A stretch of DNA of 61,799 nucleotides from Dehalococcoidia bacterium. GTDB taxonomy: Bacteria > Chloroflexota > Dehalococcoidia > Tepidiformales > Tepidiformaceae. The stretch covers positions 1 to 61,799 of the forward strand of contig JAHDWR010000001.1 in the NCBI GenBank assembly GCA_023382755.1, in the 5' to 3' direction. The position numbers were made by a program, and so were the translations under genes. Positions 11,929-31,700 of the stretch are shown one piece after another (within the stretch, counting starts at the first letter, position 1; the number at the start of each line of letters is the position of its first letter). Under the pieces are notes generated by a model. That model saw only the letters and a program-made list of their open reading frames with translations. It had not been told where the DNA came from and did not search any database.

Positions 11929-11940
11929 GCTGGAACGAGC

Positions 11941-13612: not shown

Positions 13613-13662
13613 GCCAATTCGCAGTCTGACTCATCACGGCCTCCTGGCCGCTGGAGTCAGAT

Positions 13663-14895
13663 ATGCGCATCTTCGCCCTCACCGTACTTGCACTGGGATT
13701 GGCCGGCGCACTGGTGGTTGGAGCAGCCTCCGCCAGCGCGCAGGAGGCCGACGACACGCTGGACGAGCTGTCGTCGGCCGGCATCCCTCTCCTCAACAGC
13801 CCGCCTGCGCCAACCCCGCAACAGGTCCCGCCCGGCCAGCCTGGCCCGGAAGGTCAGCCGCCGCCGGATACGCTGGTCGACCTCCCGATCCCCGACCCGA
13901 CGGACTTGATCCCCAACCCCCTGGACTGGCTGCCCGGCAGCCTCAACCCCGTGAACTGGGCGAAGGACATCGTCAACGCGGTGTTCACGCTCATCGGCCA
14001 GGCGATGCTGGAGGCGATCCGCGGGTTCGTCGACTGGGCGCTGGGCATGGGAGGCTCATCGCTCAACTTCGTCACGCGCACCCCTGCCGAAGGCACCTAC
14101 GATAGCCCGACCGTCCGCAGCCTCTACGACTTCTCCCGCGCCATCGTGAACGCCGCGCTTGCGGTCGTCGTCATGTGGGGCGGCTTCAACGTCATCATTA
14201 AGGAGCACACCAGGTCGCCCTACCACGAGGCGATGGAGCTGCTTCCGCGCGTCATCCTCGCAGCGCTCGCCGCCAACCTGACGCTCGAGTTCGCGCGGAT
14301 GCTGATCGACATCAACAACGCCCTCGCCGCCGGCGTTGGCGACGTCGGCCTCCCCGGGTACGACCAGGCCACACCCTCGCAGGAGGGCCTGGCACTCATC
14401 TTCACCGCCGTCGCCTACGGCATCGTGGCGATCCTCCTGGTCTTCCAGATGCTGATGCGCCTCGCCCTGCTGGCGATGCTCATCGTCCTTGGGCCAATTG
14501 CCGCGCTGCTCTGGGTGCTGCCACAGACCCAGCAGTGGACGCGCTGGTGGACCGACCTCTTCGTGATCACCGTCTTCCAGCAGACAGTCCAGGTCATGGT
14601 CCTGGCGCTCGGCACTGCGCTGATGGTCGAGCTGACCCCCGGCAGTGTCTCCAACGCCCTTCTGACGATGCTGCTCGGTCTGGCGGTTTGCTGGCTGACC
14701 CTCAAGGTCCCCTCGCTCCTGCGCTCGGCCCGCAGCCAGGCCGGCATCACCAACGTCCTCACCTTCGCGATGGCCACCCACGCGCTTGGCGCGATGGCGG
14801 GAGCGGGTCGCGCTAGCGCTGCGGCGGGCGGCGCCGGGGCCGCTGGTGCCGGTGGTGGCGGGGCTGCTCCGCGGCCAGCAGCGGGAAGGGCCTAG
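13663..14895 (+). CDS. VirB6/TrbL-like polytopic membrane protein with a signal peptide, a Pro-rich segment and a Gly/Ala-rich tail
   Basis: Signal peptide MRIFALTVLALGLAGALVVGAASASA, then at least 6 hydrophobic helices (for example ALIFTAVAYGIVAILLVFQMLMRLALLAMLIVLGPIAALLWVL). Position next to the hydrolase and pilin genes. Confidence 0.6.
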   Translation: MRIFALTVLALGLAGALVVGAASASAQEADDTLDELSSAGIPLLNSPPAPTPQQVPPGQPGPEGQPPPDTLVDLPIPDPTDLIPNPLDWLPGSLNPVNWAKDIVNAVFTLIGQAMLEAIRGFVDWALGMGGSSLNFVTRTPAEGTYDSPTVRSLYDFSRAIVNAALAVVVMWGGFNVIIKEHTRSPYHEAMELLPRVILAALAANLTLEFARMLIDINNALAAGVGDVGLPGYDQATPSQEGLALIFTAVAYGIVAILLVFQMLMRLALLAMLIVLGPIAALLWVLPQTQQWTRWWTDLFVITVFQQTVQVMVLALGTALMVELTPGSVSNALLTMLLGLAVCWLTLKVPSLLRSARSQAGITNVLTFAMATHALGAMAGAGRASAAAGGAGAAGAGGGGAAPRPAAGRA

Positions 14896-16601: not shown

Positions 16602-16980
16602 ATGTCCCGCCGGTGACCGAAACCGCTGGCAGGGTTGAGTGTAGAATGTCGGCTCGGTCATTCGCTGTCTGCGGCTCGAATCGAGCGTTGCCTCCCGACA
16701 TCGGAGTGCGTGCAAGGCTGGGTCATGAGGGGCGAACCGGAGCGAAGCTGAGACCGCCCCAGCTCTCGGGGTTGGCGGTACGCCCGCATCGAACCGTCAC
16801 TGAGACCGTGATTGGCCAAGCGGGCGCTATGAGCAAAGGATCGAGCGGGCTGGAGCACCGGCAGGAGATTCCATGGCCGGCCACTGCCTCGCCTACGAAT
16901 CTTCCCCAGCTCGCGCGCCAAGACTATCCAGTCTGGACCGGCGGGGTCGGAGACTACACACCCGGAGTCAACAATTCGAG

Positions 16981-18354
16981 CTATGAGGCCTCGGTCCAGC
17001 CAGGGTTGAACGGTGCTTCGGCCCCGACTCGCACGGCCTGGCGGTGCTCCAAGGCCCGTAGGGTGGCGTCGATGACTTCATAGCGTTGTTCACCCAGCAC
17101 CATTCGAAGCAATTCGGCGACGACGATCGCAGCGGTGGCCGCGCCGACGAACGGTGCGCCGACCGTGCGGCCCGCAAGCGTTGTCAGCCCACACTCGTCG
17201 AGCCCTTCGACGGCGAGAGCGCGGTACGCCGGGCGCTCCACTAGCGACTCTGCTGAGACGGCGCTCCCGCCGCGGCCCCACAAGGACCGCGCCGAGCGCG
17301 TGGCCGGAAAGGTATGGACCTGGAATGCGAGATACTCCTGCGTGCCTGTGCCGAGCCCCGCCTCGATCACGCGTTCGAAGCCGACGTCCTCGAGCGCGGC
17401 CCGCGCCAGCGCGTTGTCAACGCCGCACAATGCCACGTTCGGCTCCTCGATGGACACCTTGAAGTCGGCCGCGAATCGGCGTTCGACGATGGTCGTGCGG
17501 AAGCCGCGGGCGTCGCACCAGCGGGCCATCGCCCGCGTTTTTTTCTCGGCCGGGAGCGCACGAGTGGTGAGCAGCGAGGTGCTGTCGTTCGCCTCGACCA
17601 GAGTGTCGTAGTCGTGGAGCACCAGCTCGACATCATCTGGCTTTGCGTATGGCAACAGGCCGAGCACCCAGAGGAACGCCTGTCCAAGGTGCCCCAGACC
17701 GATCAGCCAGGCGCGCGTCGGCAACCGCGTCAGCAGCGGGCCGCACTCGGCGCCCTCGAGCCAGTCCACTTCTCGCTCGGGCCGCCACAACGACAGCCCC
17801 ACCGGTCGGCGGCCGGCGGCGGCATTGCCGCCCCGCATGTGCTGAAAGGCCTCGGACACGCCGAGCGCCCCGGCCAGCACGCCGGCCGGCACGCATTCCT
17901 GCCGCTCCGCCAGCCGGCGCCCGTCGTCGAGTGGCACCACGCCCCCTGTCCAGCCCTGGAATGTCGCCCGCATCACGAACGCCCCAGCGCTACCCACGTC
18001 CCCATCGCCGAAGACGATGCGCGGGATCTCCGGGTCGAGCGCCGGCGAGATCTTGCCATACAAGTCGACCACGGCCTCGGCCAGCGTGCGGCAGTTGCGC
18101 CAAGGGACGCGCAGAGGCACGTCGAGCGAGCCGACGACCGACACACCACCCAAGAAGCCGCGACGGCTGGCGTTGAGGGCGGTTAGCACCGCCGCCTGGA
18201 GCGTGGGCGAGGCGGCGGCGTCGGGCCCCACGGCGAGGCCAAGGCGGTAGCCGGCGAACAGCCGCTCTGCATCCTGGATCGTTGCTGCCTCGCCCGTATC
18301 GAGCGCGAGCTTGACCAGCCTGTGCAGCTGGTCAGGTCGGATGATTTCGCCCAT
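16981..18354 (-). CDS. bilD: E1-like (ThiF/MoeB-type) ubiquitin-activating enzyme homologue, BilD-like
   Basis: Rossmann GxGxxG AWLIGLGHLGQAFLWVLGLL, and VALCGVDNALARAALED. Last gene of a Ubl-E2-JAB-E1 operon. Confidence 0.7.
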   Translation of the reverse strand: MGEIIRPDQLHRLVKLALDTGEAATIQDAERLFAGYRLGLAVGPDAAASPTLQAAVLTALNASRRGFLGGVSVVGSLDVPLRVPWRNCRTLAEAVVDLYGKISPALDPEIPRIVFGDGDVGSAGAFVMRATFQGWTGGVVPLDDGRRLAERQECVPAGVLAGALGVSEAFQHMRGGNAAAGRRPVGLSLWRPEREVDWLEGAECGPLLTRLPTRAWLIGLGHLGQAFLWVLGLLPYAKPDDVELVLHDYDTLVEANDSTSLLTTRALPAEKKTRAMARWCDARGFRTTIVERRFAADFKVSIEEPNVALCGVDNALARAALEDVGFERVIEAGLGTGTQEYLAFQVHTFPATRSARSLWGRGGSAVSAESLVERPAYRALAVEGLDECGLTTLAGRTVGAPFVGAATAAIVVAELLRMVLGEQRYEVIDATLRALEHRQAVRVGAEAPFNPGWTEAS

Positions 18355-18367
18355 CGTTGTCCTCGTA

Positions 18368-18895
18368 CTATCCCCACAGCCCCACGTAGAAGAAGCGCCC
18401 GGCGCGAGGGCCGCTGTGGTCGCGCCACTGGTGCTGGCCGAGATACTGGTAGACGCCCAAGCCCGCCGGCGTGATGGCGCGCTGCGCGAGGTCGGGCACG
18501 ATCAGTGCGACATGTCCGGCCTGGGCGACCATCGGGTTTTCTCGGTCGAGGTGGCTCTGTCGCGCCGGGCCGCGCCCCCCGTGGGTGTGCACATCGGCCA
18601 CGACCCGCAGTTCGGCCTCACGGCAGAGCGCCCAGAGCGGGCCGAAGCCCGCGCCGTCGAAGACGATGATGCCGGTGTCCAGGCAGAGCGGGTCCAGCTC
18701 GTCGAAGTAGACGAAACGCACGACGCGCCGGCGCTGGCCATCCTGACGGCCGAGCAGGAAGGCCCCGCTCTCGTGGCGGCCCTCTCCGCGACGGGCCAGC
18801 TCGGCCAGGCCGTCCCGCCAGAGCGCGGTCGGGCAGCTTAGGCGGTGCTCAGGCGCCGCGAGGGCCCGAATAGTCGCTCGAAGTGAGAAGGTCAT
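18368..18895 (-). CDS. bilC: JAB/MPN (JAMM) metallopeptidase, BilC-like
   Basis: ESGAFLLGRQ (Glu motif) and VADVHTHGGRGPARQSHLD (H-x-H...S-x-x-D). ATG at 18895; overlaps the E2 3' end by 47 nt. Confidence 0.75.
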   Translation of the reverse strand: MTFSLRATIRALAAPEHRLSCPTALWRDGLAELARRGEGRHESGAFLLGRQDGQRRRVVRFVYFDELDPLCLDTGIIVFDGAGFGPLWALCREAELRVVADVHTHGGRGPARQSHLDRENPMVAQAGHVALIVPDLAQRAITPAGLGVYQYLGQHQWRDHSGPRAGRFFYVGLWG

Positions 18896-19337
18896 GGACG
18901 ATCCTCAAGTACTGAGTGATGTCGCCGGCGGGAGACCAGAGCATCGAGGGGTGCTGGCTGCGCCAGCCGTCGTGGCCCTCGATGGAGAGCCGGTCGCACG
19001 GCAGGTAGATGCACTGGCCGCCCTTCCAGCCGGGGTTGAAGGCCGGTGGGATGCGTGCCCGCCCGCTGGGCCAGCACGCGGGTGCAAGCGGAGCCTGCCG
19101 CTCGGGGTCCCACGGCTGGGCAGTGGGTGGCGTCTGCGGGTAGTTGGTGAGCTCGAAGCGCAGCGCATACTCCGTGGGTCCGCCCGGCCGCTCGGCCGCC
19201 GAGATCGCGATCACCGCGTGCGGCCAGGCGAGCGAGATCAGGCGCCACCGCCCGCGCTCCACGCCGCTCTGGAATGGACCTGCCTCCAGATGCATGCGGA
19301 AGACCCGCTCGTCGGGGCCCATAGCCGTGCCGGACAT
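18849..19337 (-). CDS. bilB: E2-like ubiquitin-conjugating enzyme homologue, BilB-like
   Basis: 162 aa. GWKGGQCIYLPCDRLSIEGHDGW is a candidate catalytic Cys loop. Operon context between the Ubl and JAB genes. Confidence 0.6.
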   Translation of the reverse strand: MSGTAMGPDERVFRMHLEAGPFQSGVERGRWRLISLAWPHAVIAISAAERPGGPTEYALRFELTNYPQTPPTAQPWDPERQAPLAPACWPSGRARIPPAFNPGWKGGQCIYLPCDRLSIEGHDGWRSQHPSMLWSPAGDITQYLRIVHDLLTSSDYSGPRGA

Positions 19338-19340
19338 TGC

Positions 19341-19859
19341 CTACCCCTCGACGCGCTGCTTGGCGACCAGGTCGAAGCAGAGTCTGCAGTCGGGCGCCGT
19401 GACGAGCGTTCCGATGTGCACGTCCTCATCGGGTCGCGTGCTGGAGTTGCACATCTGGAGCACGTGCTCGGTGGCGTCGACGCTCTGCAGGTTGAACGCC
19501 TTCTTACTGACGGCCCACTTCTTTACCCGCCCCACCGTGGCGGACGGCGGGAAATCCTCACCTGTCGTGTCGCCGTTGAAGTTCACCGACACGGCCACGC
19601 GGCGGCAGCGGTGCACGTGCACCCGCCCGCGGTGGACGATGCCGACGGCGTCGAGGCGCGCGTTGGGCGCCAACGGCTCGTCGGCATCCTCGATAGAGAC
19701 GAGCGCTTCGCCGTCGGGGGTGGTCAGCCCGTGAGCCTTGGCGGCCGTAATGATGTCCTGAGCGGTGCCGTCGCGGGGCACCAGCACCAGCGTAATGTCG
19801 GCGATGCCCTCGCCTTGGAGGAACAGCTCGATCTCGTCGCGCGTGCTCTGATGGGTCAC
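19341..19859 (-). CDS. bilA: Tandem beta-grasp ubiquitin-like protein (multiubiquitin type), BilA-like, ending in Gly
   Basis: 172 aa with two repeats of about 80 aa (IELFLQGEGIADITLVLV... and VAVSVNFNGDTTGEDFPP...). The C-terminus is ...KQRVEG immediately followed by the stop. Confidence 0.6.
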   Translation of the reverse strand: MTHQSTRDEIELFLQGEGIADITLVLVPRDGTAQDIITAAKAHGLTTPDGEALVSIEDADEPLAPNARLDAVGIVHRGRVHVHRCRRVAVSVNFNGDTTGEDFPPSATVGRVKKWAVSKKAFNLQSVDATEHVLQMCNSSTRPDEDVHIGTLVTAPDCRLCFDLVAKQRVEG

Positions 19860-20014
19860 GTCCCTGTCCTTCCACCCGCCACGGCGGGCGATTCGTAGTG
19901 AGGGCGGGACGCGTCGGCTAACACCGGGGCTTACCTCGCCACTCCTACTACGTCAATAACCGCAATCGTGCCGAACCGGATCTCCGACCGTGCGGACCTG
20001 CGCCGACCCGCGGA

Positions 20015-23000
20015 TCAGGCGTCTTCCGCCAGCGGGCAGATGAAGTAGTGTGGGCAGCGCGGGCAGACGCGCTCGCTGGGTTGTGGCGCGTAGTCCCCGA
20101 GCAGGATGCCGACGATGGCGGCATCATAGTGGGCCATACGTGTCTCGATTGTCTTCGGCTTCAACTCGACCGGCTCGACCTGGTCGGTGGAAAGGAAGCG
20201 CACTTGGACTCGCCGCGGGACGCGCGGCGGCGTCTCGCGCGCAGCGACGACGTAGAGCGCGTAGATTTCCTTATCCAGCTCGCTCTTCGTGAGCCGACCG
20301 GTGCGCAGGCGCTCGACGAGCTCGGACCCGTCTTCCAGCGCCTCAACGTGGTCGGGCGTGAATCCGACTCGTCCGTGGCGCAACTGCACCTCCCACTCGG
20401 GCCGCGCCGCAGGGCCGTAGGAGTGAAGCGGGCGCCGTGCGGCGCGCTGTACCATCGCTTCCGCCGAACGGCGGTACAGCATCTCGTAGGGGTGATCGAG
20501 CGGGCCCTGCGCCTCCCACGTCTCAGCCAGCTGCGCCAGTGCCGCCGCCTCGTCAACTGGGCGACCTGCCTCGCGCTCGTCCGACATCCATCGGAGCACC
20601 TGGTAGACGCAAACATGGAACTGCAGGTAAGCCGAATCCTCGCGCTTGGCGCTCAGGCCGAGGACGTACTCGTAGAAGAATTGGCGCGGACAGCGCATGT
20701 ATAGCTCGACTGCCTGGACGGGCCAGGCGACGGGGGACGGCGGTGGGTCGGGCACCGGCACCGGCGTCGGGGCGTTCGACGGCCATATCACCGGACCATC
20801 GGGGTGGGTGGGCAGCAGGTGGCTGATGGCCATGACCAAGCTGGACGGTCCCCTGTTTTGGTTGCCGTACCGCCGGGCGCGGGAGAGGCACAGCACGTCG
20901 CGGGCGCGCGAGAGCGCCACGAAGAACAGGCACTCTTCCTCCTCGTCGTGGTCGTCACCGGACGCCGCTAGCATGCCCGTCGGTGCGGGGCAAGGGCGAG
21001 CCTGGCGCCGTGACGGGAAGATGCCCTGCCCGAGGGCCGGCAGGTAAACGGCGCGAAACTCCAAGCCTTTGCTGGCGTGTACGGTGAGCAGGCGCACCGC
21101 GTCCAACCCGTCGGCCCAGCCGGGCACCTGGCGCAGCTGCTTCTCTTCGCCGAAGATCTCCAGCCGGCGCACGTAGTGGAGCAGACGCCTCTTCGGCTCG
21201 CGCGGCTCGCCCGGCACAGCGGGGCGCTGTTCGTGCACGAACTGAAGGAGCTGGTACAGCGCCAGGAGGCGCTGCCGTCCCACCACCGAGCCGTCGGCCA
21301 GCGCCGCGCGTAGGTAGTCGCCGCGATCGAACAGGTACCGCGACAACAGCGTCCAGGGCCGGCTGCCGTAGCAGAGCCCGTCAACGTGCCGCGCCAGGAG
21401 CGCGATTCCCTCCTTGCCACGCGGCGAGATGCTGTCGGCGTCCTGGGCAAGTTCGAGCGCACGCGGAAACGGGACGCCGCCATCGCCAGCAAGCTTCAGC
21501 AGAACGCGCACGTCGGACAGCGGGATCTGGTACTGGGGAAAGCGGGCGACTCGCACGAGGCCCCGCCCGTCCGGCTCGCAGGTCAAAGCCACAAGCGCAA
21601 GCATGTCGCGGACCTCGGGCCGCTCGAAGAGGTCGCCGAGGTAAAGGACTGGGACCCCGTTGCGCTCGAGTTGCTCCGCGATCTTTCCAAGGTAGGCATG
21701 CGAGCGACAAAGGATAGCCTGCGCGCCGTAGGCGATGCCGGCCGCTCGCTGGTGCTCAATTTCCCGCGCCAGGCCGTCTCCCTCCCCGTAGAGGTCGTCG
21801 GCCACCTGCATCAGCACACGACTGGCCCCGTCAGGGCGTGCGGGTTCCCACGGCGTGAAGGCGGCGCCGCGCGCGGCGCGCATGCCGGGCGCCATCCCCG
21901 CGAAGACGCGGAGGATCGCCGGTTGCGAGCGATAGTTCCGCCCCAGCGCCATGACCTTGGCGCCCGGGAAATCCTCGGCGAAGAGACGCATGTTGACCGG
22001 CGCTGCGCCGCGGAAGCGATAGATGGCCTGCCGCGCGTCGCCTACTACCCACAGGCCCGCCCCAGCGCCGGCGATCTCGCGCAGCAGCAGCCCGCTCGCG
22101 CGGTTGACATCCTGGTACTCGTCGACCAACACGTGGCGATGGGTCCGGCGGACCGCGTCCCGCACGTCGGTGTGCGTCCGCAGCAGTGTGACTGCCTTGA
22201 AAATCAAATCGCCAAAGTCGAGCAGGTGCTCACGGTCGAGCAGCGCTTGGTAGGCCGTGTAAACGCGGGCCACCTCGAGTGCCTTGTCCGCCGCCTCGAC
22301 CTTCGCCGCGTCGGCTGCCTCGTCTCGCATCTGCTGCGCGATCGCGTTGTACTCGGCGGGGCCTACGAGCTCGTCCTTCGCGCGCGAGATGGCGGCCATA
22401 ATGTCGCGCAGGTAAAGGGTCGGCTCATACAGGTTCTGGTAATGGTCGAGTTCCAGCTCGGGCAGGAGGCCCTCGAGCAGGGCCACCGCGTCGGCGGGGT
22501 CTAGCACGTCGGGGCGGGCCGGCAGCCCCAGGTGCGTGCCGTACTTGCGGAGCAGTTCCAGCCCAAAGGCATGAAAGGTGCCCATCCAGATGTGCGGGGC
22601 CGCCGATGGATCGGCGAGGGCGACACGCGTCCGCATTTCCTCGGCGGCACGGTTCGAAAAAGTCAACGCCAGAATCGCAGAGGGCGGCACGACCTGCTGG
22701 AGCAGGAACACGACGCGGCCGACGAGCGTGCGCGTCTTGCCCGTCCCCGGCCCGGCCTCGAGCAGCAGCGGGCCGCGGCGGGCGTGGGCCGCTGCCACCT
22801 GGCTCGGATCCAGCTCGAGCGTCTCCTCCGCAGGCGCGTTGACCGACTCGACGATCTCCGGCGTCAGCAGCGCACGCGCCAGCTGCTGCAGCACCATGCC
22901 CGCTGGCAGCCCGACGCGGGCGGCGATGCCGCTCGCACCCAGCCCTTCCGTTTCGTACCACACGCGCAGCGCGTCGGTCGGCAGCAGGAATTCGCGGGCG

Positions 23001-23410
23001 AAGACGTTCGCCTCGCGCTCGCGCCGTTCCGCAGGGCCGTAGCCCTCGACCCGCTGAACGCCGAGCGGGACGGCCTCCTCGGTCGCCTCGGGGTCGGCAT
23101 CCACCTCGCCGCAGACAGTGTGCTCGCGGTGCCGCCAATAGTGGCCATATTCGTGGGCCTGGTAGAAGCGCGCCAGGCTGGGCTCGGTGTCTCTGTTGAA
23201 CCAGATGGTATCCATGTCGAGGTCGAGTGCCGCCTCGCCGCCATCCAGCAACGCGTCGCCGGCGGGCAGGCCAACGCGCGTCAGCCCGGTCAGCCGGTCG
23301 GCTGCGGCGAGGAGCGCCTCGGCCGAGGGATCGGCCCCAGTCCCACGCAGAACTTCGGCGCGCCGCGCCCGCGCCTCCCACCGCAACTCCTCCCAGTGGC
23401 CCGTCCCCAT
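20015..23410 (-). CDS. Three-domain fusion: ImmA/IrrE-type (M78) Zn-peptidase, UvrD/PcrA-type SF1 helicase and Cas4/AddB-type Fe-S PD-(D/E)xK nuclease
   Basis: Peptidase YQAHEYGHYWRH (HExxHxxxH). Helicase LLLEAGPGTGKTRTL, LTFSNRAAEEM, VLVDEYQDVN, VVGDARQAIYRFRGA, NYRSQ, TVHASKGLEFRAV, FFVALSRAR. Nuclease YMRCPRQFFYEY plus terminal CPRCPHYFICP (4-Cys cluster). Start taken at MGTGHWEEL (23410); the track ORF runs to 23467. Confidence 0.75.
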   Translation of the reverse strand: MGTGHWEELRWEARARRAEVLRGTGADPSAEALLAAADRLTGLTRVGLPAGDALLDGGEAALDLDMDTIWFNRDTEPSLARFYQAHEYGHYWRHREHTVCGEVDADPEATEEAVPLGVQRVEGYGPAERREREANVFAREFLLPTDALRVWYETEGLGASGIAARVGLPAGMVLQQLARALLTPEIVESVNAPAEETLELDPSQVAAAHARRGPLLLEAGPGTGKTRTLVGRVVFLLQQVVPPSAILALTFSNRAAEEMRTRVALADPSAAPHIWMGTFHAFGLELLRKYGTHLGLPARPDVLDPADAVALLEGLLPELELDHYQNLYEPTLYLRDIMAAISRAKDELVGPAEYNAIAQQMRDEAADAAKVEAADKALEVARVYTAYQALLDREHLLDFGDLIFKAVTLLRTHTDVRDAVRRTHRHVLVDEYQDVNRASGLLLREIAGAGAGLWVVGDARQAIYRFRGAAPVNMRLFAEDFPGAKVMALGRNYRSQPAILRVFAGMAPGMRAARGAAFTPWEPARPDGASRVLMQVADDLYGEGDGLAREIEHQRAAGIAYGAQAILCRSHAYLGKIAEQLERNGVPVLYLGDLFERPEVRDMLALVALTCEPDGRGLVRVARFPQYQIPLSDVRVLLKLAGDGGVPFPRALELAQDADSISPRGKEGIALLARHVDGLCYGSRPWTLLSRYLFDRGDYLRAALADGSVVGRQRLLALYQLLQFVHEQRPAVPGEPREPKRRLLHYVRRLEIFGEEKQLRQVPGWADGLDAVRLLTVHASKGLEFRAVYLPALGQGIFPSRRQARPCPAPTGMLAASGDDHDEEEECLFFVALSRARDVLCLSRARRYGNQNRGPSSLVMAISHLLPTHPDGPVIWPSNAPTPVPVPDPPPSPVAWPVQAVELYMRCPRQFFYEYVLGLSAKREDSAYLQFHVCVYQVLRWMSDEREAGRPVDEAAALAQLAETWEAQGPLDHPYEMLYRRSAEAMVQRAARRPLHSYGPAARPEWEVQLRHGRVGFTPDHVEALEDGSELVERLRTGRLTKSELDKEIYALYVVAARETPPRVPRRVQVRFLSTDQVEPVELKPKTIETRMAHYDAAIVGILLGDYAPQPSERVCPRCPHYFICPLAEDA

Positions 23411-23433
23411 TCGCTCTATTATCCGTGCGCCGC

Positions 23434-24081
23434 TTAGCGGCCCTCGCGGTGCGCGAAGGCAAGCCATCGGGCGCGCTGTTCGTCTGTCATCGTCGGGTCG
23501 CTGCGAACTGCTACGAAGAAGTCCTCCGGCTCCGCCAGTTCCGGCGCCCGCTCAGCGTGGTGCTGCGCCGCCGCGGCGAATGTCGGTCCCTGCTGTAGGT
23601 AGCGGGCGACGCTCTCAGTCTGGCGCTGGATCACCGCAGCGAGCACCTCGATCGCCTCGTGCGGAATCGACGCGTAGCGGATTAGCCGGCGATCGAGCTT
23701 ACGGAGTAGGCCGTCGCCGATTCCTGCGGCCCGGGCGAATTCGCGGGGCACGAGGCCGCGGGAGCGCGCTTCGGCCACGAGGCTCTCGAACGGCAGCAAC
23801 GCCGACGTCGAGGTCTGCGTCTGCGGCTGCTTATGCAGCAGGTTCTGGACGACGCTCATACCGCGCAGCACGAGGGTCTCCTCGTCGACCTCATCGGCGT
23901 CGAGTGCAGGCGGGAGTGACCTCATGAGGCTCCAGCTCGCCGCGAATTCGGTCAGCTCGTGCGTGTACTGCGGGTAACGACGAATCCACTCGGCCAGCAA
24001 TGGGCTCTCGGGACCGGCCCCGGACGCAATAAAAGCGTCGAGTACGTCCGCCAGGGTCTGACGCTCCTGTGGGTCGTTCAT
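23434..24081 (-). CDS. HTH-containing protein; putative XRE/ImmR-like partner of the downstream peptidase fusion
   Basis: GLVPREFARAAGIGDGLLRKLDRRLIRYASIP is HTH-like. The MNDPQERQ start (ATG at 24081) forms an ATGA overlap with the sigma-like gene stop. Confidence 0.5.
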   Translation of the reverse strand: MNDPQERQTLADVLDAFIASGAGPESPLLAEWIRRYPQYTHELTEFAASWSLMRSLPPALDADEVDEETLVLRGMSVVQNLLHKQPQTQTSTSALLPFESLVAEARSRGLVPREFARAAGIGDGLLRKLDRRLIRYASIPHEAIEVLAAVIQRQTESVARYLQQGPTFAAAAQHHAERAPELAEPEDFFVAVRSDPTMTDEQRARWLAFAHREGR

Positions 24082-25019
24082 CGTTGTTCTCCTCGCCATG
24101 TCTGTAGGGACTCTTCGGCCTTCTTAAGCCAGTTGCGGATGGTGCGGGGATCCTTGGCGAAATGCCGGCTGATCGTCCGCACCGCCGGGTCCTGGTGCTC
24201 GATCGGCCAATCGAAATAATGACGAAGCAGGAACGCAGAGCGGAAGGGCTCATCGATGCGACTCAGCGCGTCGCGGATCAGCGCGTCGTTGATCACGCCC
24301 ATCTCCCCAGAGGGCGACGTGACCGCGTCGTGGTCTCGCGGCCGTGCCACCCACTCAGGCTCCTCGTCGCCGTCGCGGTCGTAGCCGGGGAGCGAGGACA
24401 ACGACACCGCTGCCCGGTCGCGCTTATGCAGCGTGAGCTGCTGGTTGAACGCGCGGACGGCCAGCCTCTCCAAGGCCGGCCAGAACCGCACCTGGAGGAA
24501 GTCGCCGCGATTGCTGTCGAGGTCCAGGATCGGCGCGAACAGCCTCTCCACAACGTCGTTGTAGCCATCGCGTGCGGCCTCGCCGCCGAGCCGACTCAGG
24601 TGGCCGTCGATGAGCTTGGCGCAGCGGCGCAGCAGCGCCGCTGACAGGTCGCTCACGAGACCCGTTTCGCCCATGCGGTGGTAGTGCCGGATCAGGTAGA
24701 CCAGGCACTCCTCTTGGAGGTACTCGTCGCCTTCCGCGTCTGCTATCGTCACCCGCTCCAGAAGCGGCTCGGGCCGGAGGGCCAATGCTGCGGCGATCTG
24801 CTGCTCGACGGCCGAGTTGCGCTGGTACAGCTCATCGTCGGCATTGCGGTGGGTGAGGGGCTCGACAGGCCCGGGGCCATGCGACTGGCTGTCCTTCAAC
24901 GGCGCGGGTCCTCTCTGCGGCCCGTCCGGACGGGCCCTCATGCCTTCTAATACATCGCGCGCGCCGGGATCGGAAGGCATCAGCCGACGATTGCAGCGCC
25001 ATTCGGCGTGGCGTGGCAC
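24078..25019 (-). CDS. Sigma-70-family (ECF-like) RNA polymerase sigma factor homologue with a long linker between regions 2 and 4
   Basis: Region-2-like LQEECLVYLIRHYHRMGE. Region-4 LSRIDEPFRSAFLLRHYFDWPI...RTISRHFAKDPRTIRNWLKKAEESL. True start uncertain; several in-frame Met lie downstream of 25019. Confidence 0.55.
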   Translation of the reverse strand: MPRHAEWRCNRRLMPSDPGARDVLEGMRARPDGPQRGPAPLKDSQSHGPGPVEPLTHRNADDELYQRNSAVEQQIAAALALRPEPLLERVTIADAEGDEYLQEECLVYLIRHYHRMGETGLVSDLSAALLRRCAKLIDGHLSRLGGEAARDGYNDVVERLFAPILDLDSNRGDFLQVRFWPALERLAVRAFNQQLTLHKRDRAAVSLSSLPGYDRDGDEEPEWVARPRDHDAVTSPSGEMGVINDALIRDALSRIDEPFRSAFLLRHYFDWPIEHQDPAVRTISRHFAKDPRTIRNWLKKAEESLQTWRGEQR

Positions 25020-25487
25020 GGCGACGGTTAGATGCGCGGCGAGCGGTGTTGAAGTCCTCCTCGCGACGCAGCATGGGTCGATGCTCGGTGCAGTCCGAGC
25101 ATCGCATATTTGGTTAGTAGCATCTCTTCAGACTCGATATCGTCCACGACGTAAACCGGATGGGACTGCGGTGGCCCGTGCACAATCGCGCCGGCGACCT
25201 TGGCGGCGATCGTCCTCGAGCTGGCGCTGTGCTCAGTCGGCACGCTCAAGAAGACCAACGGCATGCTGGTGCGACACTCCAACCGCTTCGCCGCAGGGAA
25301 GGCCCGACACGGACGCATCACCCAAGCTCTCGGCATCGGCGAACGAGGCCTCAGTCCAGCGAAGGCCCGAGGCCTCTCAGGTCGGAACATCGCCCAACGC
25401 ACGGAACCGTTTGTAAGGTCCGGGCCGCGCTCGTTGACGTGGAGACAAAGTCGAAGGAAGCCGACGTCTCGGTGGACGATGGGCCGC

Positions 25488-27728
25488 TCAGGTAGGCTCT
25501 GGTACCTGGCTAGAGCAAGCACAGGCTGTCGTAGTGCCAATCGCTTGTCTGTGCGGCCGACTACCGCGTCCCGCCTGGATCGCATCGGGGACAGCCGGCT
25601 CGTTGGATTCCGCGCAGGCGGTACTACGGACCTCGATCGACCGGATGCTCGCAGACGCCGGAAGGTGCCCTGGTGCGAGACCACCGGCGAACTCCTTCGA
25701 TCGCGAGTGCCAGAGGTTAAGGTTGAACTGAAGCGGCTGGTTGGGGATCGGCGTGGGATCCCACGTCATCCGTTCGTAGACGACCTCGCCTTCGACAAGC
25801 CAGCGGATCGTGTTCGGTAGCCAATCAATCTCGTACGTATGGAAGTCGGCGGCGGCGTCGAATCCGAGATCGACCAGGGTTGGCGTGCCGCGGTAGCCGT
25901 ATTCAAGCCTCGTGCCCACGGGCCCAGGGTTGTAGAACACGTTGACGAGCATCTTGCTGGTGTCTTTGCCGAGGAACTCGATGTCGATCTCTTGGCGGGG
26001 ACCGTTTCGGTGAAGGAACATACCGGTGATGAGTCCCGGTGCGCCGGACGGACGGAGTTCAGCCCTGAAATTGCCATAGCGATAGGAGACGCTGCTCGCG
26101 ATCGCTCCCGACGTGAGCTCGCGGACAGACGTCTGCTCCTGACGAAGAGTCAGCAGCGCGTGGCCTTCGTGCTGGCTGACGTTCGCTGGCGTGAACAGCG
26201 CCATGTTGCTCGGGAACGTGTCGTCGCGGAGTTTCCACGCTGAATCGTCGAGCTTGTCGCCGGAGGCCCAATCAACGCGCACAAATGACGTGCGCGAAGC
26301 GGGAGCCGTCTCGACGGCGACGCCGCGCCACTCGCTGTCTGGCCTCAAGATCCACGGCCCAATATCGGACTTCAGATTGGTTGAGTTCCGAGCGCTGTGC
26401 AATGGCATCCGCTGGCGAACGGCGCGGAAGCCACGTTCGCGGTCGGTCGGATACGGGAAGGCCGGATAGTCGGTGTTGAGGAACTCGCTGAGCGCCGCCC
26501 ACTTGTCCTGCACCTCAGGCGTGAACCGAAGGGCACGGTCGTGAACAGCAGGAGGCAGCACCTGATCCGCCGCCGTGCTGATGAACCAGGCGCTAGGAGA
26601 CGCCTTGGCGATCTGCTCGAGTACTTCGATCGAGAGCGAGCCAACGTTGACGTAGGCGTTGAACAACCGTCCTCGCTCTCCCCGGAGCAGACGCTGTCCT
26701 TCGGGTACTGGCAATCGGTCTAAGTCGCTACAGCAGGTGTAGCCGAGCATGGACAGTGCGACGGCAAGCGCGGTCAGTCCGGAGCCCTGTTCGCCAAAGG
26801 CAAGCACTGGCCCGGGCAGTCGCTTGGTCGTCGGCAAGAGCGGCTTCTCACGCGTAATAGCTCCCACTTGGGCGAGTACGGGCAGGACGGAGTATGAATT
26901 GGTGGACGGCTCATCGATACGCTGCTCGATGAGCGGACGTGCCGCGATGTACGCACGCAACCGTCTGAACTGCATGTTCAACCAGAGGTCGATCGGGCCG
27001 TAGACGGGCAGCGCATCGAGCAGTTTCCGCGCGCCTTCGCGACTCAGAACGTAGGCGGAGGCCTCCCATATGCCTGGTTGCTGCAGCCTGCGCGCGCCGT
27101 CCCCTTTGCGGACAGGAGAAGCGTTGCCGACCTCTTTGAAAGCCAGGTAGAGGAGGTCAAAGTCTGGCTCATCGGTCCCCGGGTGCGTAAGCGACGACCA
27201 TGTTGCCTCAAGATCGCGGGCGAAGCCGTAGGTCATGAATACGTCGTCTTCGAGCACCAGTGCACTGGGGACGTCGCCGTTGGCAATCAGCCTCCACACC
27301 TCGATGTGGGAGAGTGCCACGGCGACTTCTTGCTTGGTCATCTCGATCACACGAGCGCGCGAGTCGTCATCGATTCGTAGCAGCGGGTTCGGGTCAACGG
27401 TGAGCTGGTCAGCCAGTGTGAATCGCGGGATCAATACGGCTGGGCCAGGCGTCGCCTCCATATACCGTGAGTCAACGGCAGAGAACCGTCGGGCAATCGC
27501 CGATAGGCGTACATCGTTCCGGTCGCGAAAGCGGTCTAGTTCTCGCCTGACGCGCTGCCACCGGTCAGGTCGCCGGTCGAGGTTGATCACGTAGATGCGA
27601 CGCAACACACCGGGTTCGTTGCTGCGCGAGAACACGGCTGCGCGTCGGCGCCAGTCGAACACTCGGAGGCGAAGCCGCCCGTGATGAAGAAGACTCTGCC
27701 GGAAGTCCGCGGACGAGAGTTTGTTCAT
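25488..27728 (-). CDS. Multidomain glyco-enzyme: family-25 glycosyltransferase, a sulfotransferase-like middle region and a GH16 (concanavalin-like glucanase) domain; no signal peptide
   Basis: GT25 RRIYVINLDRRPDRWQRVRREL. Middle AFGEQGSGLTALAVAL. GH16 catalytic signature PRQEIDIEFLGKDTSK (ExDxE). Start MNKLSSADF (ATG at 27728) forms an ATGA overlap with the upstream gene. Confidence 0.65.
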   Translation of the reverse strand: MNKLSSADFRQSLLHHGRLRLRVFDWRRRAAVFSRSNEPGVLRRIYVINLDRRPDRWQRVRRELDRFRDRNDVRLSAIARRFSAVDSRYMEATPGPAVLIPRFTLADQLTVDPNPLLRIDDDSRARVIEMTKQEVAVALSHIEVWRLIANGDVPSALVLEDDVFMTYGFARDLEATWSSLTHPGTDEPDFDLLYLAFKEVGNASPVRKGDGARRLQQPGIWEASAYVLSREGARKLLDALPVYGPIDLWLNMQFRRLRAYIAARPLIEQRIDEPSTNSYSVLPVLAQVGAITREKPLLPTTKRLPGPVLAFGEQGSGLTALAVALSMLGYTCCSDLDRLPVPEGQRLLRGERGRLFNAYVNVGSLSIEVLEQIAKASPSAWFISTAADQVLPPAVHDRALRFTPEVQDKWAALSEFLNTDYPAFPYPTDRERGFRAVRQRMPLHSARNSTNLKSDIGPWILRPDSEWRGVAVETAPASRTSFVRVDWASGDKLDDSAWKLRDDTFPSNMALFTPANVSQHEGHALLTLRQEQTSVRELTSGAIASSVSYRYGNFRAELRPSGAPGLITGMFLHRNGPRQEIDIEFLGKDTSKMLVNVFYNPGPVGTRLEYGYRGTPTLVDLGFDAAADFHTYEIDWLPNTIRWLVEGEVVYERMTWDPTPIPNQPLQFNLNLWHSRSKEFAGGLAPGHLPASASIRSIEVRSTACAESNEPAVPDAIQAGRGSRPHRQAIGTTTACACSSQVPEPT

Positions 27729-28579
27729 GAGCCGTCCGCCTCTCCGTCGCCGCGCACCCAGTTCCTCCAGTTGCGCCCGTCGGCTCGGTATGCGAGCGGC
27801 CACTTGCTGACCGCCACAGCGTCCCAGCTCGTGAGCATCTCGAAGTCCCGCGCTTTGCCGTCCGCATGTTGTTGAGCGGCGTGACTCACCAGGCTTGCCG
27901 TGAGGTTGCCCGGCCCGGTCAGCGACTGCAGGTCACGGTTCGCTCTGTTTGCCGCGAGCAGGAGGGCCGTTGCGCGCTCCAGAGCTCTCGCTATCACCGG
28001 ATGCGCTGGCCCGGCGATGAGCGGGTTGTTGTTGACGTAGAAGATCCGCGCCGTGCCCGCGCTGTCCACTAGCGCACGCGCCACGTCGACCATCGAGTCC
28101 GACGCGATGTCGTAGCACAGTGGCTGGAGCCACAGTTGTCCGCTGCCAATCAGCGGCTCGACATCCGCTCCGCGATACTCGTCGTCGGCATCGACGTACA
28201 GTCCGCCGACTCGGAGCATAAAGCACAGCCGGAAGTAGTCAGCACGCATGGCGGGGTGGCTGCAGCGGGCGAAGGCCCGGACGTTCCGTTCGCTGAAGTG
28301 ATCCTCAATGAAGTGCCGCGCTGACGTGTCGTCGAACAGCGTCCGCTCGAATCCCGCAGCCTCAAGTTGTGCCCAGCTGTCCAGGCACTCCTGCACATCG
28401 TCGGGGATGGCTGAAGCGTCCCAGAACTGTACGAGTACCCGAGGCGTCGTGGGACGGCTGGCAACTTGGGATTCACCGCTCGACGCGGTGATGAGTTGTC
28501 GCATGAACTGCGACCTCAAGCTATCGTCTTCGGCGATTTCCGTGGGGGTGAGAGTTGGCGATGCTCGACGTGGGCTCAT
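27725..28579 (-). CDS. DXD-motif glycosyltransferase (OCH1/capsule-synthesis-like sugar-binding region)
   Basis: PRVLVQFWDASAIPDDVQECLDSWAQL and FRLCFMLRVGGLYVDADDEY. Confidence 0.65.
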   Translation of the reverse strand: MSPRRASPTLTPTEIAEDDSLRSQFMRQLITASSGESQVASRPTTPRVLVQFWDASAIPDDVQECLDSWAQLEAAGFERTLFDDTSARHFIEDHFSERNVRAFARCSHPAMRADYFRLCFMLRVGGLYVDADDEYRGADVEPLIGSGQLWLQPLCYDIASDSMVDVARALVDSAGTARIFYVNNNPLIAGPAHPVIARALERATALLLAANRANRDLQSLTGPGNLTASLVSHAAQQHADGKARDFEMLTSWDAVAVSKWPLAYRADGRNWRNWVRGDGEADGS

Positions 28580-28706: not shown

Positions 28707-31700
28707 TCACTCCCGCTCGAACCCCTGGCTCGTGAACTTCAGCGACCTGCTGTTCTCCGTCACCGTCCTCACGACGTTGTCAGGCGCGCCGTCCGGGATG
28801 TCGGCCTCTATCTCCAGTGTCACGCGGACGTCCGCGCCTACCAGCCCCACGAGGTGAGCGATGACTTCGTCGGCGATGCGGCTCGCGTCGCGACCGGCTC
28901 TGCTCGGGTCGAGTGATGCCGTGCCGTGGAAGCGCCTGGGCTTCGTCTCCGCCGGCGTCGCCGGACCACCGGTAGAAGTGGAGGTGCCAGGCGTACCCGG
29001 CCCGGAAGCGTGTCCGGCAGCGGCCGTCGCAGCGGCTCCCCCCTGTCCAGTCGCGCCGGCAGCCTTGGCGGCGTCCTCTTCGAGCTGGAGTTGCGCCCAT
29101 TCCGCGCGCACAAGCAGACCCGCGTCATTCTGGCGCGACACGTCGACCGCCTCCCCGCAGCGAAGGCCACGGTACCGGTTGCTCGCCTCATCGAAGCTCT
29201 CTGCATAGGCGAACGAGTCCTGCGTCCAGAGGAGCGTGCGAAGGCCGGAACGGATGGCTTCCAGCAAGACCTCGGGATCGCGCAGCCGTGGGAGATAGGT
29301 GTACTGCGCGAAGTCTTCGATGAGCTGGCGGATCGCAACGTGGTCGCCCCGCCAGAGCGGGATGTCGTCCAGGTACTTCTTCAGGACAGTGTGGCCGAGG
29401 CCGGTGATGAGCAACTCGTCGCTGCGCAGCTTTTTGCTGGCGCGTGCTGCCAGCCGGTCCTGTCCGGAGAGGCGGATGCTCTGCCACGTTACCGGCGCTG
29501 GGGGAATTGGTTGCACGGGCACCAGCAACCATTGATACGTCTCCGGGATGCGCGCATTCACGGCGCTGTCGCTGGCCGCCTTCTGGGTCTCTGCCTGCTT
29601 CACGCGGCTCGGATCCAATTCCAGTTGCACCCGCTCCGCGAGGATCGAGTCCCACGCGAGGAACCGCCGGGTTGCCTCGTCGAGGTCCTGGAGGCGAACT
29701 GCATCGGCGGCGAGGAACACAAGCGTATTGCGGTAGCCTCGTGGTGCGCTTCCGCGGCTTTCGAGGATAGCCTTGGCTGCATGCTCCGAGAGGTTGTTCT
29801 CCCGGCTGTAGCGGTGGTCGAGACCAAGAACCACCAGACGCGCGTCTGTATCGTCGGGCACGTCATAGCCGGACTGCGGAAACGGGTGGACGCGAGAGAA
29901 ATCGCCCTTGGAGCCGTTCTTCCGGTCATCCACATCCATCCGGATGCGTCGCTCGATCTCCTGCGAGACCTTGTCCGGCTCGCGCTTCAGCTGCTCTGCC
30001 CGATCCTCGGCCATCTTTGTGACCGTTGGCTGCGTGGAGTACCAATAGCGGTTGCCGTCCGCGTAGAGGTATGTCGCGGCAGCGCTCAGCCGCCGGAGCG
30101 CATCGCCGAAGATGGCCGGGGACTCGCCCGGCATCACGCACCCGAGTTTGATTCGCCGGTCTTCGATACCCCGATGTGCGGCCTCCGCCGTCGGCGCCGA
30201 GCCGAGGTAGATGGTCCGCGCGACACGGCGCGTTGCATGCGAGCGGCCCAGGTTCGGCACTTCGCCATCGATCCGCAATGGCAGCGCGTTGGACCCGTCC
30301 ACATCCCGCTCGATTACCGGCACCCAACCCTCCGGCAGGTAGCGTGTCAGCTCGAACTGCACCCGCGGGTCGTCGATGGGAATGTTGCAGGGCAGGATGA
30401 GCGGGTTGCGGTCGCCCTTCTCCCAGAGGCTATGGATGACCGCCGCCATCAGTCGCAGGACGCCTCGTGTGCGCTGGAACCTCACCAGCGTCGACCAATC
30501 GCCGTAGAGCCGATCGAACACCTCCGGGTGGATCGGGTAGGCATCCTTGGTTCGCCGCTCGTAGTCTGATTCGCGGCACTCGGGCGGGAATTCCTGATGC
30601 TGTGTGCGGTAGAGATCGGCGAAGGCGCGGGCCACCGTATCCCGGTCGGTAAACTTCTCCGGCCCTTCGAGAGACTGGAACAGGCGCCGGCGCACGATCT
30701 CGAAGCCCTCTTCGGCGCTGGCCGGACGCCATGACGATTCGACCCGGCCGATGACATTTTGGAGCCGCTGTAACGCCTCGCGGCCACGCTGACCGCCGAC
30801 TTCGATATCGTCCGCCTGCGCATGTGGGGAGGTGCCCGTGTCCGAAGCGGGCAGGCTGATGACGAGCAAGCAGTTCTCGGCCAGCTTCGCCGACTCGGTC
30901 AGTGCCTGCGCAAAGGTGAAGTGTGTATCGAAGTCGCCAGCCGGCAGATCCTTGGCGTCGTGGAGCTGGCGCGCGTAGGCAACCCACTCGTCGATGAGGA
31001 TGAGTGCCGGTCCGTACTCTTCGAGAAGCTCTCGCAGCCGGTCACCCGGGTTTGTGGCGTTCTCATCGTCGGCACGAATGCGGTCGAAGGCGGGACGTCC
31101 GCCCAGTTGCCAGGCGAGCTCGCCCCAGAGCGTCCGCACGACCGTCCCGTCCGGCTTCGTCGTGGGGTTACCCGGCGAGATCTTGTTGCCGACCAGCACG
31201 ACCGGCTTCGCTACTCGTGGCAGCTCGGTCACGCCGGCATCCGCCATGACCGCATCGATCCCCGCGAGCTCGCTCGGCTTCGCGCCGGAGAAGAGGTGGA
31301 AGAGCGCGAGCATCGAGTGAGTCTTGCCTCCGCCGAAGTTTGTTTGGAGCTGGACGACAGGGTCGCTACCGTTGCCCGAGAGGCGCAGGATCGCGCCCGT
31401 GAGCATCTGCTTGAGGCTCACCGTCAGATACGTGCGGCGGAAGAACTCGACCGGGTTCCTGTAGTCGTCGGAGCCTTCGCCGAGGTGGACCTGCCAGAGG
31501 TCGGCGGCGAACTCGGCCTGTTGGTAGCGCCCCGAGGCCACGTCCGGGTGTGGTGTCACCACGTCCCGCCACGGCTTGAGGTTGCTGATTGCCTGTGTTT
31601 CGACGACCGTTCCGGCCGAGCGCCGCTGCTGGCTGCGGACCTGCTCATCGAAGCGGACGCGCTGCAGCTCCATCGACATTTTCTCGACTTCTTCGGCCTG

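Follow-up and report, generated by a model that had tools for sequence, protein, structure and literature searches.

Bil, encoded by bilABCD, is one of the bacterial systems that most clearly parallel the ubiquitin/ISG15-based antiviral immunity of eukaryotes; studies of it have been confined to its four genes expressed from an artificial inducible promoter, leaving its native control aside. The first 61,799 nucleotides (nt) of contig JAHDWR010000001.1 from a Dehalococcoidia bacterium, hereafter the window, carry a bilABCD operon preceded on the same strand by three genes, denoted g1, g2 and g3 and collectively the trio. We propose that, within a cassette of seven Bil-associated genes, the trio is the module by which transcription is natively controlled, acting as a sigma/anti-sigma/helicase-protease circuit, and we assign this reading a probability of roughly 60%. 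We observed that the genes are linked, that their products have recognizable folds and catalytic residues that are conserved, and that promoter motifs occur in pairs. Taken together, these comparisons point towards a dedicated sigma factor that serves two promoters and is gated by a protease to which a DNA helicase is fused.

The initial annotation of this DNA described three coupled minus-strand genes, and the junctions were confirmed at the nucleotide level. The TGA codon of g1 (24078–24080) shares bases with the ATG codon of g2 (24081–24079) in the ATGA overlap claimed at 24078–24081; 23 nt separate the TAA codon of g2 (23434–23436) from the ATG codon of g3 (23410); and 155 nt lie between the g3 stop codon (20015–20017) and the GTG start codon of bilA (19859). 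The open reading frame (ORF) of g1, taken to start at 25019, was too long, because the conserved promoter-like motif P1 (24948–24975) lies inside it; judged by the homologues and the database gene call P0241 (273 amino acids, aa), the gene begins at TTG 24899, with ATG 24881 as a possible alternative. The identification of the downstream operon as Bil was upheld by PADLOC models matching near full length in the canonical order A-B-C-D (BilA, E=5e-54; BilB, 9e-64; BilC, 8e-67; BilD, 1e-166), and by Pfam matches to DUF7665/BilB-like and Prok-JAB; the class is defined by a two-beta-grasp ubiquitin-like protein (Ubl), an E2-like protein, a JAB deubiquitinase and an E1. The coordinates of these features are collected in Table 1.

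Table 1. Coordinates of the Bil cassette, its protein domains and other features in the window. AF2, AlphaFold2; ECF, extracytoplasmic function; HTH, helix-turn-helix; pLDDT, predicted local distance difference test; SF1A, superfamily 1A.
Feature	Position	Strand	Description
g1	24078..24899	(-)	Probable ECF-like sigma factor, 273 aa
g2	23434..24081	(-)	Partner protein, 215 aa
g2 N-terminal four-helix domain	residues 10-82		AF2, pLDDT ~80-86
g2 disordered linker	residues 81-93		AF2
g2 XRE-type HTH	residues 100-165		AF2, confident
g2 conserved low-confidence stretch	residues ~168-183		AF2 and alignment
g2 C-terminal helices	residues 188-214		AF2
g3	20015..23410	(-)	1131-aa fusion of M78 peptidase, UvrD helicase and Cas4-like domain
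g3 M78 (ImmA/IrrE-type) peptidase	residues 67-177, 22880..23212	(-)	PF06114, 35.8 bits (cut-off 22)
g3 SF1A UvrD/PcrA-type helicase core	residues 201-845, 20876..22810	(-)	PF00580, E=6e-63; PF13361, E=4e-28
g3 Cas4/AddB-like PD-(D/E)xK-fold domain	residues 898-1126, 20033..20719	(-)	PF12705 PDDEXK_1, E=1.5e-10
P1	24948..24975	(-)	TTCCGAT-N17-ATTA, bipartite promoter-like motif upstream of g1
P2	19954..19981	(-)	ATCCGGT-N17-ATTG, bipartite promoter-like motif upstream of bilA, starting 34 nt past the g3 stop
bilABCD operon	16981..19859	(-)	PADLOC models and Pfam; proposed controlled effector operon
bilA	19341-19859	(-)	
bilB	18849-19337	(-)	
bilC	18368-18895	(-)	
bilD	16981-18354	(-)	
bilA-leader stem-loop	19875..19888	(-)	CCCGC-CGTG-GCGGG, directly 5' of the Shine-Dalgarno; consensus fold of 12 leaders
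Other defence-type genes	28707-32075, 35664-36707, 41001-44594	(-)	As listed by domain matches

Linkage of the trio to Bil operons

A scan with a g2 profile, taking one genome per species, identified 23 loci, mostly in metagenome-assembled genomes (MAGs) of Chloroflexota/Dehalococcoidia and also in Acidobacteriota, Gemmatimonadaceae, an Aldehydirespiratoraceae MAG and Hyphococcus (Alphaproteobacteria). Of the g3 homologues, the first three to be examined, 59–75% identical to that of the window, all lay within the same seven genes in identical order (3/3). When the seven window proteins were used as tblastn queries, with L001 and L015 counted once as they share a contig, the order g1-g2-g3-bilA-bilB-bilC-bilD was found collinear on one strand at 23 of the 25 distinct loci retrieved via g2 or g3, and loci L151 and L153 also contain the collinear seven-gene cassette. 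The exceptions were L004, where the trio stands without Bil and both promoter motifs are lost, and L021, where a 3.8-kb insertion (10636–14417) separates g2 from g3 and only bilA follows g3.

Sampling in the reverse direction gave the same picture. BilD matches 38 plasmids of PLSDB. Twelve distinct plasmid operons with a BilD sharing at least 39% identity with that of the window were inspected, and 11 of them have trio homologues directly upstream and co-directional. The presence of g3 was confirmed by tblastn in 11/11 of these, while g1 or g2 fell below detection at E=1e-3 in five, a gene of the expected size occupying that position. The cultured plasmid hosts comprise Rhizobium leguminosarum (pRLN3 and pRL11), R. 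phaseoli, Sinorhizobium medicae, Bradyrhizobium quebecense, Aminobacter SR38, Roseovarius pelagicus, Pseudohalocynthiibacter, Sphingorhabdus, Xanthomonas euvesicatoria 85-10 (pXCV183) and Variovorax RA8, so that the cassette is testable now in plasmid-bearing Xanthomonas, Rhizobium, Sinorhizobium, Variovorax and Roseovarius. Overall, the hosts span Chloroflexota, Acidobacteriota, Gemmatimonadota and Alpha-, Beta- and Gammaproteobacteria. In RefSeq, the trio homologues are labelled 'hypothetical', 'LuxR family' or 'sigma factor-like HTH', and 'UvrD-helicase domain-containing'.

The neighbourhood survey thus established that the three genes are conserved together. Order and strand are fixed across phyla and the spacing to bilA is kept at about 120–156 nt, whereas the flanking genes apart from Bil show no conservation; an order repeated in dozens of unrelated genomes goes far beyond what chance would produce. 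A scan of viral contigs with the g2 profile returned one weak partial match, and tblastn against phage genomes returned none, indicating that the cassette is not phage-borne in the viral and phage collections scanned.

More distant Bil operons have other genes at this position. Upstream of and co-directional with the Bil operon of Paraburkholderia caffeinilytica CF1 plasmid p1 (L163, 5279–9395), a plain HTH plus ImmA/IrrE pair occupies the same position as the trio; a divergent 418-aa XRE-family gene lies upstream of the operon of Rhizobium N621, and nothing comparable was found upstream of that of B. cepacia. The P. caffeinilytica pair consists of a 109-aa HTH regulator and a 238-aa ImmA/IrrE peptidase, and downstream lie an imuA-imuB-dnaE2 mutagenesis cassette and an SOS-response-associated peptidase.

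The trio is also found with other downstream genes. At L148-L150 (6461–14549), a trio whose g3 is 56% identical to that of the window is followed by YjzC (60 aa) and a very divergent Bil-like operon with a single YukD-like Ubl of 84 aa (BilB-like, E=0.003; BilC-like, 1e-8; BilD-like, 1.5e-18), and both promoter motifs are intact, at 6461 and 11435. At L154/L155 (9239–15444), a distant trio composed of a 226-aa sigma factor homologue, a 205-aa g2-like protein and a 1166-aa M78-UvrD-PDDEXK protein has, in place of Bil, genes for a HEAT-repeat protein (280 aa) and for a protein with a Mut7-C RNase domain (112 aa, E=5e-31) behind it; the sigma gene and the HEAT gene are each preceded by a common element, TTCCG-YR-TTGA-S-GGATG. 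Effectors may be exchangeable behind this sensor module.

Like L004 and L021, some further cassettes are decayed or disrupted. The sigma gene of the Sphingorhabdus plasmid cassette (L171, 1–1561) is cut by IS256, and Cupriavidus EM10 (L164, 3656–5067) has kept a g2-like gene and a 256-aa upstream gene, with no helicase. Near the proteobacterial cassettes, SbcCD-like exonuclease/ATPase pairs and genes with WYL and WGR domains recur (L157, 3569–7782; L161, 1–1460; L170, 1–345; L171, 8580–13305); these may represent further defence or DNA-end-processing modules of the same islands.

Paired promoter motifs and domain structure of the trio

Within the window, the pattern TTCCGRT-N17-ATTR has a single match, P1, against an expected 0.01, and the shorter TCCGRT-N17-ATTR has two, P1 and 19954–19980 (P2), against an expected 0.19. 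Alignment of the g3–bilA spacers revealed a conserved block, tTTCCGGTcTg-N13-CGATTG, and the same block, ending in CGATTA, is located about 85–125 nt upstream of g1. A P1-type motif was present at the matching relative position in 21 of 26 loci, and a P2-type motif in the g3–bilA spacer of 22 of them. When a degenerate form of the motif was searched on both strands of these 26 loci (505 kb), it gave 57 matches, 43 at the P1 and P2 positions and 14 elsewhere, the latter number equalling the 14.5 expected from shuffled sequence. The -35-like part is constant; the -10-like part is lineage-specific, yet P1 and P2 of any one locus agree in it (CGATTR for the main group, GGTACTRA for L153, GCGACTRA for Variovorax, TTGTAR for Rhizobium). 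Such co-variation would result if a private sigma factor co-evolved with two promoters of its own. Moreover, the conserved blocks are asymmetric, which argues for a promoter rather than a dimer operator, and a symmetric repressor operator explains the pattern poorly. No sigma-70-type promoter was detected across 16800–25600. A metagenome scan with the pattern TTTCCGGTYT-N14-CGATTR gave at least 120 matches, and among the matches listed none lay near g1, g2, g3 or Bil homologues; about 16 specified bases occur by chance in a collection of that size, so the scan is silent on a wider regulon.

The AF2 model of g1 (mean pLDDT 80) comprises an ordered N-terminal extension, a helical sigma-2-like domain, a disordered linker of about 40 residues (165–204) and a C-terminal HTH (sigma-4) whose helices reach pLDDT 80–94. 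The sigma-like nature ascribed to this protein in the initial annotation was supported by Foldseek, since all 50 of the 50 best PDB matches are sigma factors, among them those of the sigmaE-RseA and AlgU-MucA complexes and SigL and SigH of M. tuberculosis. The best match was sigmaE/RseA (1or7; E=2e-3, probability 1.0), and the alignments to 1or7, 6dv9 and 8z6g extend over about 190–215 columns across both domains with probabilities of 0.97–1.0 and TM (template modelling) scores of only 0.2–0.4. By sequence, 32 of 33 g1 homologues match the sigma-4 domain PF08281 Sigma70_r4_2 (best E=2.9e-8), whereas the window protein itself reaches E=0.006, under the gathering score; a PDB sequence-profile search with g1 yielded nothing useful. 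We regard g1 as a probable sigma factor. Its N-terminal extension, modelled with high confidence, contains a near-invariant EPLT(R/H)xN..G..Y.R motif at residues 13–21 (24837–24863). ECF sigma factors normally have no such extension, and this one could serve as a regulatory contact, an RNA-polymerase contact or a processing site.

The start of g2 is well defined, as 31 of 31 aligned homologues begin at the methionine of the ATGA overlap. Its AF2 model (mean pLDDT 77) resolves the domains listed in Table 1 and corroborates the earlier description of an HTH protein, fold matches specifying an XRE-type HTH, the usual partner of ImmA/IrrE peptidases. This domain superimposes on SinR (TM 0.75, root-mean-square deviation 1.9 Å) and also resembles DdrO (the IrrE substrate), C.BclI, 434 Cro and phage CI/Cro repressors; its basic recognition helix, LRKLDRRL, includes the invariant residues K128, R131 and R132. 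The N-terminal domain is conserved to the same degree as the HTH and thus has a function of its own. By sequence, g2 matched nothing in Pfam, NCBIfam, PADLOC or the PDB, and a Pfam scan of all its homologues at E up to 10 revealed neither an anti-sigma family (zf-HC2) nor any other consistent family. As a lead only, inspection by eye showed that the W32-x3-Y36-x2-Y39 spacing equals the H-x3-C-x2-C of zinc-binding anti-sigma (ZAS) domains. The conserved, low-confidence stretch between the HTH and the C-terminal helices is a plausible candidate cleavage site, the linker at 81–93 being another candidate. The g2 family comprises 1385 clusters at 50% identity with E ≤1e-3, 159 of them with E ≤1e-30.

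All three domains of g3 score above the Pfam cut-offs, and the architecture is common to more than 120 full-length homologues. The M78 peptidase had been recognized from its HEYGHYWRH motif, which is indeed present, and H86, E87 and H90, together with a downstream E..AN.FA.E(F/L)LLP block, are invariant in homologues 34–82% identical. The SF1 helicase is complete, as had been stated, comprising UvrD-helicase and UvrD_C domains, with Walker A GPGTGKT (220–226) and DEYQD (430–434) invariant even at 34–42% identity; it matches PADLOC GajB-like UvrD models (E=7e-72), scores 316 bits against NCBIfam PcrA (cut-off 911), and is no equivalog of PcrA, UvrD or Rep.

The remaining claim, that g3 ends in a 4-Cys PD-(D/E)xK nuclease, held in part. 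The fold and the four cysteines are there: C907, C1116, C1119 and C1125 are invariant in an iron-sulphur (Fe-S)-type arrangement (CPR...CxxC...C), and the motif-II aspartate is kept. The (D/E)xK signature is absent and an active nuclease is unsupported. Motif inspection by eye set GFTPD...VERLRTG...EIYALY of the g3 family against GFID...LLDYKSN...QYQLY of RecB, so that motif III reads R1034-L-R1036-T-G in place of D-Y-K-S-N and IYALY stands for QYQLY; motifs II and III are unconserved in the Variovorax, Rhizobium and L154 homologues. The match to TIGR00372 cas4 (E=5e-5) lies under its cut-off, and neither hhalign of this domain against E. coli RecB nor a PDB profile search produced an alignment. 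From these residues, the nuclease is probably dead and the domain more likely DNA-binding than cutting. The loss of the nuclease residues, together with the invariance of the peptidase and ATPase residues, fits a sensor rather than an effector.

Proposed circuit, rival readings and known systems

According to our proposal, the UvrD motor and the nuclease-dead, Fe-S-type Cas4-like domain of g3 would engage DNA ends or single-stranded DNA (ssDNA) arising from phage infection or DNA damage, and this engagement would activate the fused M78 peptidase, leading to the cleavage of g2. The g2 protein would keep the system off, most likely as an anti-sigma factor whose N-terminal four-helix domain binds g1, with the XRE-type domain serving as a handle or substrate for the ImmA/IrrE-type peptidase. 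Once released or de-repressed, g1 would transcribe from P1, driving g1-g2-g3 in a positive feedback, and from P2, driving bilABCD, and the induced Bil proteins would conjugate the ubiquitin-like protein to phage tail proteins. We infer the binding of g1 to P1 and P2, the g1–g2 interaction, the cleavage of g2 and the nature of the trigger. The translation of g2 is coupled to that of g1 via ATGA, which is the usual sigma/anti-sigma layout; by analogy, an anti-sigma role is the most likely one for g2, fitting both this coupling and the N-terminal helical domain of about 80 residues.

The initial annotation had left a choice between a stand-alone defence system and a regulator of Bil or of the integrative and conjugative element (ICE). 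Near-universal collinearity and the promoter-like motif shared by g1 and bilA strongly favour the regulation of Bil. This regulatory reading is further supported because other Bil operons use CapH/CapP, CapK/CapS or a plain HTH plus ImmA pair, because the trio keeps both promoters with the very divergent, single-Ubl operon of L148, and because at L154/L155, where HEAT-repeat and Mut7-C genes replace Bil, a TTCCG-containing element is again common to the sigma gene and the downstream genes. In addition, BilABCD alone, induced from pBAD, protects E. coli, so that extra genes are unneeded for the effector chemistry in the systems tested.

Several observations weigh against the proposed circuit. 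Pfam detects no Sigma70_r2 in g1, the Foldseek TM-scores of g1 are low (0.2–0.4), which we ascribe to a different orientation of its two domains, and RefSeq is inconsistent on the g1 homologues, calling them 'LuxR family' or 'sigma factor-like HTH'. The fold matches of g2 are limited to the XRE domain, with weak E-values (0.3–3); its N-terminal domain belongs to no anti-sigma family by sequence, and the top fold matches of g2 include no anti-sigma structure; and its HTH resembles a canonical DNA-binding XRE motif, making a repressor role possible. Finally, P1 and P2 of the window are the most divergent of their group, with TATTA/TATTG instead of CGATTR.

Some of these points would fit a variant of the same circuit in which g2 is a classical XRE repressor of the CapH, ImmR or DdrO type, placed at or just downstream of P1 and P2 and cleaved by g3, while g1, unsequestered, supplies promoter specificity only. 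Besides the canonical HTH with its basic recognition helix, short palindrome-like sequences (CCTAGTAGG at P2) lie 3–6 nt past the -10 block, TAGG occurs at a fixed distance at both P1 and P2, and, to our knowledge, every M78 partner characterised (ImmR, CapH, DdrO) is a repressor that binds DNA (also PMC13373217). Nevertheless, we regard this variant as unlikely. The strongly conserved parts of P1 and P2 are the asymmetric blocks, whereas a dimeric operator common to both, when sought, gave only short palindromes of 3–4 bp per arm that differ between P1 and P2; a sigma-coupled gene with an N-terminal helical domain of some 80 residues has the layout usual for an anti-sigma factor; and the conservation of that domain, equal to that of the HTH, speaks for its own function.

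That g3, with g1 and g2, might instead be part of the Bil effector machinery, its helicase acting on phage DNA or bringing Bil to its targets, would account for the very tight Bil linkage, which is also expected of an obligate subunit; UvrD-type helicases are effector parts in Gabija, whose GajB models g3 matches, and the cassette sits in defence islands. We consider this improbable, given that induced BilABCD suffices for protection in E. coli, that g3 has lost the nuclease residues and kept the peptidase residues invariant, that the sigma factor and paired promoters would have no role, and that the occurrence of the trio with the divergent operon of L148 and with the HEAT and Mut7-C genes of L154 suggests a swappable front-end. 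More improbable still is an independent defence or DNA-damage system that adjoins Bil only by a shared island or ICE, or a regulator of the ICE. The conjugation and other defence genes of the window, L004 with its trio lacking Bil, and the other genes following the trio at L154/L155 could be cited for it, but the fixed order, strand and spacing to bilA across phyla, with flanking genes other than Bil unconserved, led us to reject a stand-alone system on synteny. The cassette also occurs apart from conjugation genes, for example beside dnaN/dnaA in L003, which disfavours control of the ICE; the same promoter motif precedes bilA, and L004, devoid of both motifs, looks decayed.

The sigma/anti-sigma/helicase-protease circuit would join, by analogy, two known schemes: the M78/XRE pair and the protease-released sigma factor. 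Like the trio, CapH/CapP, ImmR/ImmA (ICEBs1) and DdrO/IrrE (Deinococcus) combine an M78 metallopeptidase with an XRE-type HTH protein. Immune operons, Bil among them, can have CapH/CapP upstream and are then induced by it, through ssDNA, when DNA is damaged (10.1101/2023.09.26.559546; PMC13373217); it is carried by 15% of Type II Bil operons (10.1101/2023.09.26.559546). CapP is a stand-alone peptidase, whereas that of the trio is fused to some 950 residues of full UvrD helicase and probably dead Cas4-like region; CapH is a small repressor, whereas g2 has 215 aa and an extra N-terminal helical domain; the trio adds a probable dedicated sigma factor and candidate cognate promoters; and it is co-directional with Bil, while CapH/CapP is reported as divergent (10.1101/2023.09.26.559546). 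Thus, the trio would work alike but is not a member of CapH/CapP, from which architecture and orientation set it apart.

The release of a sigma factor by a protease follows the scheme of the RseA cascade. In CalpL/CalpT/CalpS of type III CRISPR, a sensor-protease cleaves an anti-sigma-like protein and frees an ECF sigma factor (10.1101/2025.07.01.662501). The two systems would share a protease-released sigma factor and a transcriptional response to infection. CalpL has a SAVED sensor binding cyclic tetra-adenylate (cA4) and a Lon-type protease, unlike the presumed DNA-helicase sensor and M78 protease of the trio, and the proteins are unrelated save for the sigma factor at the superfamily level. 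In Myxococcus xanthus, the ECF sigma/anti-sigma pair DdvS/DdvA controls an island with CBASS (cyclic-oligonucleotide-based antiphage signalling system) and type III-B CRISPR (PMC11506125); DdvA is a transmembrane anti-sigma factor, and this pair has neither M78 peptidase nor helicase and serves other output operons.

A 2026 study names only CapW/BrxR and CapH+CapP as regulators of immune operons known until then to respond to DNA damage, and adds CapK+CapS as a third family, found with five Bil operons (PMC13373217). Like the proposed module, CapK/CapS and CapW/BrxR are DNA-damage-responsive controllers adjoining immune operons; they differ from the trio in using kinase/STAS-winged-HTH or WYL chemistry and relief of repression, with no dedicated sigma factor and no homology to g1–g3. 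As for g3, AddA, RecB and AdnB likewise have an SF1A motor followed by a PD-(D/E)xK-fold domain, and its four-Cys arrangement is of the AddB/Cas4 type; g3 differs from them by its R-x-R in place of (D/E)xK and its N-terminal M78 domain, and it scores far below every NCBIfam equivalog cut-off. RecC offers a precedent for a catalytically dead nuclease fold that handles a DNA strand.

The literature searched, with most subscription journals outside coverage, contained no description of this module. Tentatively, and at slightly under even odds, we suggest that the trio represents a fourth, mechanistically distinct family of controllers, combining a helicase with a dead Fe-S fold, an M78 peptidase, an XRE-type anti-sigma factor and a private sigma factor with its promoters so that the sensing of DNA ends or ssDNA becomes positive, self-amplifying transcription, modular in its outputs (L148, L154) and the default native regulator of this Bil clade. 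If correct, the proposed circuit would add a positive-control, helicase-coupled mode to the DNA-triggered regulators CapW, CapH/CapP as well as CapK/CapS, and would provide a function for the unannotated g2 family (>1000 clusters) and a new use of a nuclease-dead Cas4-like domain.

Other features of the region

The defence-island and ICE setting assigned to the locus was verified, a relaxase, TraG/TraD, a VirB4-like ATPase, TrbL and an HmaC-like HEPN-DUF499 gene being encoded nearby; an NlpC/P60-SLT hydrolase gene lies among the conjugation genes. The other defence-type genes of the window encode a HEPN_Swt1-DUF499 protein matching PADLOC HmaC (E reported as 0, 1139 bits), a PRTase-CE protein (E=6e-52) and a 1198-aa SNF2/ResIII helicase with a C-terminal NOV_C domain. 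On the minus strand, positions 25488–28579, which separate the HmaC-like gene from the Bil cassette, encode a fusion of Glyco_transf_25 and Glyco_hydro_16 (771 aa) and a DXD glycosyltransferase. Scanning the window for Rfam families and tRNAs gave no match, and megablast of the region against plasmids found no near-identical record.

The bilA-leader stem-loop has five pairs, one of which shows a compensatory change (A-U to G-C) in 2 of the 12 sequences. A stem-loop CCCAC-N4-GTGGG is found at the equivalent position in most cassettes (L001–L023), and a second, more variable hairpin lies upstream of it and is missing from four loci. Positions 25079–25104, some 100 nt upstream of P1 in the gap that separates g1 from the glycosyltransferase gene, form a perfect 10-bp stem with a 6-nt loop (CGATGCTCGG-TGCAGT-CCGAGCATCG), T-rich on the plus-strand side only, which may act as an insulator of the cassette. 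In a G+C profile over about 24–46 kb, the stretch between the Bil cassette and the HmaC-like gene is lower (0.59–0.65) than the surroundings of the Bil cassette (0.68–0.70), which suggests mosaic acquisition.

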